Below are positions 196-4,187 of a DNA stretch of 64,000 nt, one piece after another. Below the pieces are notes generated by a model. It did not search any database. It had not been told where the DNA came from and was given only the letters and a program-made list of their open reading frames with translations. How positions within the stretch are numbered: position 1 is the first letter of the stretch; each line of letters starts with the position of its first letter. A program made the translations under genes and the position numbers. The stretch spans positions 1-64,000 of the forward strand of contig MU271186.1 in NCBI GenBank assembly GCA_021432655.1, given 5' to 3'. This stretch comes from Atractiella rhizophila (lineage: Eukaryota).

Positions 196-2254
196 TCACA
201 TGGAGAGGCGAGTCCAGCTCCCACTCCTCCCTCCGCTTTTCTCGACAACCATAATGCCTCCAATCTCCATCTCTCTCCCTCCGACGCTTTTCAACATATC
301 CCAAACGGTCAATAATGCGGTGCTAACTCCAACCAGAGCTTCCATCTCCACTCCGGTCTTCCCTTCACACTCTGCCAGGCACTTTGCATGTAGCACCCCT
401 GCTTCCTCATCAAGGTCAAAATCCACAACTACATCCGTCAATCCAACCGAATGACAGAGAGGAATGAGGGCATCAGTTCGTTTCGCAGCTTGAATACCCG
501 CGACACGGGAGACTGTGATTACGTCTCCTTTCTTCGATACAGCGGGATGAAGAAGTGACTGCACGGCAGGAGGAGGGAGACGGATGAAACCCACTGCGAC
601 AGCTCGGCGTATAGAAGACGTTTTGGAAGTGATGGGGGACATTTTGAGGCGACCTGATGGCGAAATATGGGTGAGGCCGTGTGTATCTAATGGTTGTTCT
701 TCTTCCCTCTCGGAGTTTTGTTGCTTCGTAGTAGTAGCAGTAGAATGAGTGGAATAAGTTCTGGCGTGGCGGAACAGATTTGAGCTAGAGGGTGGATGCA
801 ACCATGGAAGAAATGATCGTCTACCCGCTATTTAGCATCAGCTTCTGTCACTCGAATGGACAGAAGACACACCCAATCCCAACCATCGGCCCACTACGAC
901 CGTTGCGTGCAATGTCTTCAGGCATCGCATGACCATCGTGCTTCCATTTCTTTCCTTGTAGCGCTCCTTGCACTCTGATGTAGATCTCTTCATCGGTCGA
1001 ACCGTTCCTGAGCAACTCGCGAAGCTGAAGAACTGGTGCACCGAACAGACATACCTGTTTAAAGTTCATCACCATTTGCTGTATGTTGCATTGAAAAGGA
1101 AAGAGATAACGTACCTTCAGTCCTCCATCTGCTCCAACCCGAATTCTGTCACAGCCAGCACAGAAGTGTTCCGTCATACTGCTAATAAATCCTATTCTCC
1201 CCAGACTCCCATCGATACTCCACACCCTAGTGGTAGCATGCCTCTCCATTGGGAGTTGGGCGAACGAAGGATGGACTGCCTTGATGCGTTCCTGTAAGAC
1301 AGACGAAGGAACCAGTTTCTTTGTAGACCAGCGATTATCCTCGAATGGCATATATTCGATAAACCGCACTTGTATTGGCCTATCCCGCACGAAAGAGACG
1401 AATTGGAGCACCTCGGCATCATTCAGACCAGCAATGACGACGCAGTTCAGCTTCACTTTGAATCCTACGGCAACAGCTTCGTCTAGACAGGAAAGAACGG
1501 CTTCAAAGCCTGCTCAAGACCATGAATATAGCATTGAAGATATGAGGTGAAGACTCGGACACACCTCGACGTCGTGTGATGAGCTCGAATTTGAAGGGAT
1601 CTAAAGTGTCCAGCGAAAGATTGATATTGTCCAATCCTGCATCCTTCAGACTCTTCAGCTTCCGTCGTAAGGCAATGCCATTGCTTGTCATGCCTATCGA
1701 CTCTAATCCATTGTTCTTCAAGCTGGCGATCCGATCTAGGTTCCAATTCGGTTACTTCCACAGTGTTGCAGCGAAGAATATGAAAACCCCTACCCACAAT
1801 CTCCACAATGTCCCGACGAATAGTTGGTTCACCACCAGTTAAGCGGACCTTTTTCACTCCTTGCTTAACAAAGAGATCGGCTAGTTTGTACAACTCGTCC
1901 GCAGTCAGAATGTTCTCCTTAGGAAGGAGCTCAACGCCAGTGTCAGGCATGCAATACGTGCCTGGGCCCCGTAAATGTCTTCAGGTCTCTTGCCACAAGT
2001 TCCAGTACTAAACCCTACATCTGAGGTTACATTTCTCAGTCAAGGAAAGCCGCAGGTATGTGTGCTGACGATTGAAGCTGTCTATCAAGTACGGAGACGT
2101 CTTATCCAGAGATTGAATGCGTGCCTGTTAGGTCAACAGGAATGAGAATTACTCGATGGCTCGACAAAAACATTAAAAGACGAACTCGTGCTATCTCAGC
2201 CACCGTGGATGCGGATCTACCGAGAGTCGAAGTCACGCTCCTTATGCTTCGCAT
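196..2254 (-). CDS. MOCS1: Molybdenum cofactor biosynthesis protein 1: MoaA (GTP 3',8-cyclase, radical SAM) followed by MoaC (cPMP synthase); multi-exon
   Basis: Spliced reading gives [17 protein letters not shown] (presequence-like), [29 protein letters not shown] (CxxxCxxC), [23 protein letters not shown] and C-terminal MVGIGG*. ORF 196-801 has MoaC motifs LIPLCH, GVEMEAL, WDMLKS, EKSGG. Confidence 0.95.
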
Positions 2255-2736: not shown

Positions 2737-4187
2737 TCAAAAGATAGCCATAGCATTCGGAGGCGAAGCCTGTTTACAATAAGCATACATGAGAATGAGG
2801 TGGTAAGCAAGCGGAAGAATAGGACGAACCACATTCCCTTTCACTCTCAAAGGAGCACTGGTGAAAAAGAAGCTCCACCTTTCGTTCCTCTCACATGCGG
2901 CCGAGAGAGCGTCCAGATCCCAAAGCTCTCCTATCGGGCATCCAAAGCCTCCCAGCAAGGATTGTCGCATGGATAGGCCTTTTGTGCCTTCGCCAGCTGG
3001 ATTAGGCGCTGCGTCACGGGTCAGCATTCTGAAAGGAAAGAGAAGAATCTATTGGGGACTTGGTTAGACACGGGATAACGTACGCACGGCTTCTATGCTC
3101 GGAGAATCTGTTGCTATCGCTGCGATTCGCTGTTCCCACAGAAGCTTTAAGAGTGCCTCTTCTTGCAAGAGTCCGACATAGCGATCAATCACATCAGCTT
3201 CGTGAAAGATGAGATCCTTTTGATTCTGCATTGGCAAATTCTCGTATTCTCCAGCATGTCCTGCCAACCTCTCATCAGCTATGCTCCTTGAAGGGAATGC
3301 ATACCTGTCCTGATAAGCAATATGTCGCCAGGCTCAACTTTCAATTGCTCTTCATCTAGAATGTGCGCTAGGATCTCAGCGTTGATTGAACAAGATGAGA
3401 AGGCGGAGTACCCGTCGACACCAATTTTCTTTATATATCTCGCAAAATCGACAAGTATTCCGCGGCCAACTATCCCGTGTGGTGCTATCTCTGAAACAAT
3501 TAATCCATCAGAAATTTGCCAAGGGCGGATCAAAACGAGGAAGGGAACCTCTCGCTTCTGGCGCCGCTTTGACGGTGGGAGCTGGGGGGGAGAAGGCGAC
3601 CGTTTGTCTTCCAGCGCTTGGGAGAGTGGGCTGGAAGGAGGGGATGCAGGGACCGTAGCGAATGAGACACCGCCCCAGTCTTTAAATGTGTCAAATCTTC
3701 TGCCAGCAATGATCTAGCAGGGAATCATACCCCAATGGCTGGAAGCCTTTGTATCTGTTTTGCGATTGAGCTGTAGAAGAAGATATGAGCTAAAGACGCA
3801 CCGATGCGCAAGGCTTCCTCTACTTCTTCACCTCGGTTTTTAATTTCTTGTCTCATTCTCTTCCTGTTACAATAAGGACTGCAATAGATCAGTTCTTCCA
3901 CGGTTTCGTGGCGAGTACAAGAAAGCATACTATTTTGGCATATCCAGCTTCCAATCCAAAGACACAGTTTCGCCAGTCTTGATCGTAGCTGCCGCTTGTG
4001 CGACAACAGCAGGCGATAAGTGGTTCTGTACAATCGATTAGTTGATGCCTCTTTCTACAGAAGAGAAATGGGAATGTCTGACGAGCGTGCCAAATGCCTC
4101 GCATTCAGCGAATACCCCTCCCGCATAATGGGGAGTCGGAGTTGAAGGTAGCTCTTCAAATGATGGGAAAGGGTCAGGGATGGCCAT
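2737..4187 (-). CDS. Putative cyclase / kynurenine formamidase-like family protein, multi-exon
   Basis: GTLNHL...IKTGETVSLDW, GIVGRGILVD, GDILLIRTG, AAIATDSPSIE, GCPIGELWDL...FFFTSAPL...ASPPNAMAIF are typical of fungal cyclase-family proteins. Start ATG inferred. Confidence 0.85.

Follow-up and report, generated by a model that had tools for sequence, protein, structure and literature searches.

A candidate stop-codon splice acceptor at the MoaA–MoaC junction of Atractiella rhizophila

Introduction

How can a single gene supply a MoaA enzyme that ends in a free double glycine and, from the sequence beyond the MoaA stop codon, a MoaC enzyme as well? In bacterial MoaA, the free C-terminal carboxylate and both glycines are reported to be essential (PMC12625886), and a fusion protein therefore cannot replace the short form. 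Because MoaA needs a free C-terminal Gly-Gly, lineages with a fused MoaA–MoaC must make two products. The principle of obtaining A and AB products by splicing is already published for nit-7 and human MOCS1, and the advance offered by a further locus is modest. An earlier note on the DNA studied here had rightly named animal MOCS1 as the precedent but passed over the fungal one, Neurospora crassa nit-7, which yields NIT-7A and NIT-7AB by splicing (Wajmann et al. 2020; PMC7232280).

We analyzed a locus of Atractiella rhizophila (assembly GCA_021432655.1) within a window of 64,000 nucleotides, positions 1–64,000 of contig MU271186.1, in which the gene lies on the minus strand and runs from 2254 to 196. 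The earlier note had proposed that the stop codon of MoaA doubles as an alternative splice acceptor and switches the gene between MoaA with a terminal Gly-Gly and a MoaA–MoaC fusion.

Results

Gene identity, exons, and copies

The locus is the fungal orthologue of MOCS1/nit-7, one gene for both enzymes of the first step of molybdenum-cofactor synthesis. The Radical_SAM, Mob_synth_C, and MoaC profiles all match pieces of it. In the assembled model, MoaA scores 352.4 bits against TIGR02666 (cut-off 284.05), and MoaC scores 149 bits against PF01967 and 145.4 bits against TIGR00581 (cut-off 141.5). MoaA carries two cysteine cluster motifs, CNLRCTYC and C-x2-C-x13-C, and the assembled model aligns with both S. 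aureus MoaA and E. coli MoaC, the latter from residue 413. On the features tested, the gene is a member of the MOCS1/nit-7 kind, its AB mRNA being predicted by annotation.

The RNA evidence consisted of assembled contigs, not raw reads, from 4 of 17 listed runs (X1, X2, X4, and X17); such contigs drop rare forms and show the presence of a form, not its absence. Although X17 has no library record, we took it to be RNA because its 15 listed joints have GT-AG ends.

MoaA is encoded by six exons on the minus strand. Exon 1 (2186..2254) begins with the ATG at 2254, and its model is that of the public protein P0001 (see below), with a joint in X17. The encoded N-terminus is basic (net charge +3 in residues 1–30) and, to judge by its composition, may be presequence-like. 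Exon 2 (2019..2124) leads into the CxxxCxxC motif. Exon 3 (1794..1961) matches Radical_SAM and has joints in X17, the downstream one also in X2 and X4; exon 4 (1565..1735) has a profile match and X17 joints and appears in the P0001 model; and exon 5 (1115..1509), with joints and a match to Mob_synth_C, is where the C-terminal cluster motif begins. Exon 6 (873..1054) ends in ATT GG. A minor X17 contig (depth 13.2 versus 34.6) has a 49-nt GT-AG segment spliced out of exon 2 (2021–2069, minus strand), which leaves a 2-nt exon, deletes the codons that lead up to the cysteine motif of radical-SAM enzymes, and shortens the product to 60 aa; this cryptic intron is possibly an off-switch by unproductive splicing.

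The best database match is NCBI protein P0001, a 571-aa entry from Atractiella rhizophila that is a gene model, not RNA evidence. Most of the top matches after it come from Rhodotorula, Sporobolomyces, and related yeasts, at ~45–50% identity. A 1,223-aa Pseudohyphozyma model (P0019) contains PF01794 and PF08030, which we take to be ferric-reductase domains, besides MoaA and MoaC and is probably two merged genes.

In a genome search that may miss intron-split genes, MoaA and MoaC were found in tandem only at the present locus (C7) and at a 99%-identical copy on contig C329, which is probably the other allele; no further place in the genome matched MoaC.

Sequence layout of the junction

The splice sites stand on the minus strand as the earlier note had claimed. 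A donor GT at 872 (TGG|GTGTGT) is followed by AGs ending at 828 and 821. Removing the 45-nt GT-AG intron 828..872 produces ATT GGC GGG TAG, i.e., IGG*. The AG at 821 is part of the stop TAG itself; a 52-nt form of the intron (821..872), annotated in P0001 and not seen in RNA, would give a MoaA–MoaC fusion reading IGRSF..., with the MoaC frame kept to its stop at 196. The two forms differ by the 7-nt segment CGGGTAG (821..827), identical in both copies, which completes Gly-Gly and the stop and whose TAG is the candidate distal acceptor.

If the intron is left in place, the reading ends in IGCVFCPFE* after 371 aa and lacks the double glycine, so the GG end depends on the 872^828 splice. We listed the GT-AG introns of 35–130 nt with donors from 960 to 821 that yield either GG* or a fusion. 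There are 11, and 872^828 is the sole one giving GG*, the other 10 producing a fusion. An in-frame fusion is thus not rare by itself, while the GG* coincidence is specific, and since only 872^828 among these introns gives GG*, 40 routes lacking the double glycine are not needed.

Two branch-point-like motifs, CTGAT (837..841) and CTAAA (831..835), lie 6 nt apart upstream of the acceptors. The copy on C329 keeps the donor, CTGAT, and TAG-CGGG-TAG, while its CTAAA reads CTAAG. In this second copy (L002), the place matching window position 831 has an additional AAG 3 nt ahead of the proximal TAG; read by hand as an acceptor, only 7 nt from the branch point, it would give IGSG* and no double glycine.

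RNA evidence for the GG form

One X17 contig contains the joint 827^873 at a depth of 71.8, with 69 letters on the short side. Its product is a 365-aa MoaA with a free C-terminal Gly-Gly (IGG*), and the mRNA of the GG form is thus present. The fusion joint 820^873 was absent among the joints listed (15 of 16) from the contigs of the four runs, only two of which have a contig at that place; X2 and X4 have no cover at the junction. The earlier note had set the junction reads as its test, and at the level of contigs the test returned the first joint but not the second; the proposed switch is borne out in its GG half, whereas the fusion was not seen in RNA and could be reached by other routes. The expectation that an automated model would give one form only was right, as the public P0001 is the fusion form.

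The X17 contig is unbroken across 827^873, while the minor 49-nt splice of exon 2 survived in that run at ~28% of local depth (13.2 of 47.8). We infer that the fusion junction either is no major form in X17 or was a 7-nt bubble cleaned from the contigs. The missing joint counts equally against every splice route to a fusion.

In X1, a 151-nt contig is unspliced across 828–872. Another X1 contig is unspliced across intron 2185–2125, so that DNA or pre-mRNA explains both, and we rejected intron retention as a special feature of 828–872.

One donor, one branch point, and two acceptors

Single introns seen in RNA are 44–75 nt long, a range within which the 52-nt form falls, and a G stands at +5 in 13 of the 15 donors listed from RNA. 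Of eight candidate donors, RNA shows only 872, whose crude consensus score of 5.5 is the highest of the set (range 3.5–5.5) and is equaled only by 824. An annotation-free ranking of donor hexamers over 264 kb was too noisy to use, as it placed two RNA-proven donors at ranks 191 and 243 of 256; the intron-length profile over the same 264 kb was weak as well.

The branch-point consensus is CTRAY, from which CTAAA departs. By motif match, CTGAT is the likely branch point, with its A838 at distances of 10 and 17 nt from acceptors 828 and 821. CTAAA is the weaker motif, at 4 and 11 nt, respectively; it would serve 821 only and is neither consensus nor invariant. In annotation-free counts over 264 kb of genome, summed by hand and amounting to a weak estimate, a YAG 10–18 nt after a CTRAY with a strong upstream donor was found 85 times over 188 sites, or 0.45 per site in comparison with 0.25 over 1,470 controls, and a YAG at 5–9 nt was depleted (0.07 versus 0.14). 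Judged by these distances, the single branch point A838 can serve both acceptors, with 828 at the short edge of the range. The two motifs named in the earlier note therefore exist at the claimed spacing, but a pair is not needed.

The likeliest route to both enzymes, to which we give somewhat better than even odds, is that two mRNAs arise from donor 872 and that the stop TAG at 821 is the acceptor for the fusion. Splicing to the proximal acceptor 828 is the form observed, with CGGGTAG completing Ile-Gly-Gly-stop and the 365-aa MoaA. In a minority of transcripts, the spliceosome would skip the TAG 10 nt from the branch point and take the stop TAG at 821, removing the second glycine and the stop and giving a 571-aa MoaA–linker–MoaC precursor. 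The A part of the fusion, without a terminal GG, should be inactive. On the pattern of Neurospora and human, the precursor would be imported into mitochondria and cut near R-T-Y-S-T, freeing MoaC, and the choice between AGs 7 nt apart would set the MoaA:MoaC ratio.

The 872^821 route keeps the linker motif, reuses an RNA-proven donor, and agrees letter for letter with P0001, although the last point adds little, as a homology-driven predictor would take the nearest in-frame acceptor anyway. Counting against it, nine other single introns also give an in-frame fusion, and so does 1114^1033. Among short proteins spanning the fusion junction, we found three candidates, none significant, and this comparison was uninformative.

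Related loci and alternative splices

A single metagenome scan gave 10 loci of distant relatives, 5 of them distinct at the junction (L003, L004, L007, L011, and L012). All five have a contiguous Ile-Gly-Gly-TGA. The spacing TAG-CGGG-TAG, whose conservation the earlier note had offered as a test, is not kept: TAG-N4-TAG occurs in none of the five distinct, though distant, sequences. Each has a phase-1 donor sequence before the double glycine and in the phase needed for a fusion, GAG|GTGCGT lying 50 nt upstream in four and G|GTGGGT at the first glycine in L004. A donor-like CAG|GT is found 44–96 nt past the Ile codon in all five (CAACAG|GT in four), followed in each, at a further 65–113 nt, by what resembles an acceptor in the MoaC frame. 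Standing after the MoaA stop, this CAG|GT also reads as an acceptor directly abutting a donor and may act either in the 3' UTR of the A form, as a donor, or in a two-step splice with a zero-length exon for the fusion. Three Sporobolomyces models end in IGG. The pattern, as read from sequence, suggests that related yeasts use alternative donors and that different means of getting past the stop have replaced one another even inside a single fungal subphylum; as far as tested against these distant relatives, the layout of the window appears lineage-specific.

The relatives bear on the possibility, which we rate at perhaps one chance in four, that the Atractiella fusion is made by another splice and that it is then incidental that the stop is a TAG. 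Phase-1 donors upstream can be joined to acceptor 828, the best being 894 (67 nt), besides 933, 900, 897, and 870; donor 872 can be joined in frame to the distal acceptors 785 or 761; a frame-shifting acceptor lies at 1033; and, followed by hand, a 3-nt micro-exon and then donor 824, overlapping the stop, also gives an in-frame fusion. The five distinct relatives look like alternative-donor designs, which 894^828 would match. In 19 of the 20 annotated fusion models with a readable junction, the codon of the next residue begins with G, which a phase-1 donor demands; P0001 is the exception. Two donors 9 nt apart are described in Neurospora (PMC7232280). In Atractiella, however, the alternative donors are unseen in RNA, with none of their joints among those listed, and only 894 has G at +5, scoring 4.0 against 5.5 for 872. 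Some of the introns, at 82, 88, and 112 nt, would be longer than the 44–75 nt seen in RNA, and acceptor 761 cuts the Arg from the linker motif.

The start of MoaC and reasons to expect a fusion

The earlier note had described the MoaC reading frame as lacking an ATG at its 5' end. This is correct for the genomic frame, which is open between 831 and the stop at 196 and has no ATG ahead of 642, but the 45-nt splice places the in-frame ATGs 993, 936, and 930 upstream. The MoaC domain proper (196..675, minus strand; PF01967) extends from the residues LTH to the stop and contains the ATG at 642 as the first genomic one in frame; the linker in the MoaC frame (676..820) has an R-x-Y-S-T motif at 748–762.

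Translation from ATG 642 would give MoaC as a stand-alone protein of 148 aa, and the Pfam MoaC profile begins exactly at this Met, as does the alignment of one bacterial MoaC/MoaB model. The Met nevertheless stands 11 residues after the conserved LTH strand, both this strand and the linker motif upstream are conserved, and the protein would have no targeting sequence. Readthrough at the MoaA stop cannot reach MoaC because MoaC is out of frame with that stop, and we rejected a conserved +1 frameshift since the offset varies among the relatives. We regard both translation from ATG 642 and a frameshift or readthrough event at the stop as very unlikely.

The pattern R-x-[FYL]-S-[ST], chosen after viewing the window locus and the five relatives, is found in 15 of 27 homologous linkers, P0001 among them, against 1.4 expected from shuffles, and in the linkers of all five relative loci. 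Its form in the window, R-x-Y-S-T, resembles what we take to be a mitochondrial processing site. The basic N-terminus and linker, together with the motif, are sequence signs that would fit mitochondrial import and linker cleavage. Neurospora NIT-7AB and human MOCS1AB are cleaved with release of the B domain (PMC7232280; bioRxiv 10.1101/429183), and because LTH and the linker motif are conserved and these proteins are cut to free B, translation should begin upstream of the linker.

An upstream start need not require a second splice. After the 45-nt splice, the +1 frame of exon 6 is open and runs on into MoaC, and MoaC could be translated in this overlapping frame, either from the mRNA of the GG form or from a short transcript begun inside exon 6, with AUG 993 or 930 as its start. 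In the spliced mRNA this frame runs for 271 codons without a stop, both AUGs are present in the two copies, and a start at 930 would give 229 aa with a basic 44-residue leader ending at R-T-Y-S-T (seven K/R and no D/E). This would account for the single junction seen, and in X17 the contig depth of the MoaC part, 121.8 with two haplotype contigs summed, exceeds the 71.8 of MoaA. For Aspergillus cnxABC, bicistronic expression has been considered as well (cited in PMC7232280). The openness of the frame is nevertheless at chance level, retained in 35% of synonymous recodings over the whole exon and in 55% from 930, and we rejected selection on the overlapping frame accordingly. The second copy lacks AUG 936, as do runs X17 and X1, and the MoaC frame relative to MoaA differs among the relatives (1, 2, 1, 0, and 1). 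On general knowledge, scanning past ~900 nt and several AUGs is unlikely; contig depth cannot rank gene parts, as 3' bias gives the same slope; and import of the Neurospora B domain needs the AB fusion (PMC7232280). We consider this production of MoaC improbable, and equally improbable its full form, in which one constitutive 45-nt splice both builds the GG and joins the +1 frame to MoaC, with a mitochondrial leader from AUG 993 or 930 and no AB fusion.

Discussion

With the stop TAG as the preferred distal acceptor, the locus resembles nit-7, likewise a single fungal gene in which a linker separates the A and B domains (PMC7232280). In nit-7, splicing at the GG determines whether A-GG or AB is made, and AB is cut once it has been imported into mitochondria; the intron itself contains GG and stop, so that its retention gives A and its splicing AB (PMC7232280). 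GG and stop within a retained intron are not found here. Unlike nit-7, retention gives a product without GG, splicing creates the GG, and the switch would lie in the choice of two acceptors.

In human MOCS1, the last A exon is short and carries GG and stop (Mayr et al., bioRxiv 10.1101/429183; PMC9607355). The nearest design is its type II transcript, in which only 15 nt of exon 9 are missing and A is fused to B (bioRxiv 10.1101/429183), in comparison with 7 nt here; in the available parts of Mayr et al. and PMC9607355, the human stop codon is not described as an acceptor. The main human fusion is type III (55%), with a whole exon skipped, and the human linker likewise has a predicted mitochondrial peptidase site (bioRxiv 10.1101/429183; PMC9607355).

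Tandem, or subtle, alternative acceptors are two acceptors 2–12 nt apart that compete behind one branch point (TassDB2, PMC2878309). The pair in Atractiella differs in its frame-shifting spacing of 7 nt and in that both products would be needed for the pathway. The distance also sets it apart from NAGNAG acceptors, which are 3 nt apart, and only 828 has been seen in use, in RNA contigs that drop rare forms. Gray and Nicholls reportedly found in 2000 that different animals bypass the MOCS1A stop by alternative donors, alternative acceptors, and exon skipping. A literature search confined largely to openly accessible papers listed nothing on the splicing of MOCS1 in basidiomycetes or on its stop codon as an acceptor.

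The stop TAG doubling as an acceptor, with the GG built by splicing, is probably a new layout. The locus thereby adds one more way to obtain both products, its stop codon probably doubling as the acceptor that bypasses it, and offers a compact setting in which to test how acceptors are chosen behind a single branch point. The annotation also needs correcting: the public 571-aa model lacks the terminal GG, whereas RNA shows the 365-aa enzyme, which is unannotated.

Elsewhere in the genome, MoeA_N and PF00174 matches belong to the molybdenum-enzyme inventory. The three matches to the PF00174 molybdopterin-oxidoreductase profile are at L033 (G000:C150), C580, and C642; PF02738 and PF01077 gave no match in the genome by a search that misses intron-split genes, and these blanks show nothing. 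Past the 3' end of the gene, the first bases of the window are covered by contigs of X1 and X4 and by an X17 contig (depth 197) that extends from 660 to beyond the window start; the cover at 1–195 is either a long 3' UTR or an overlap with a neighboring transcript. Upstream, an intron-rich gene (2737–3930, minus strand) is expressed, with at least eight joints listed in X17, and its C-terminal frame resembles a cyclase/kynurenine-formamidase-type protein.
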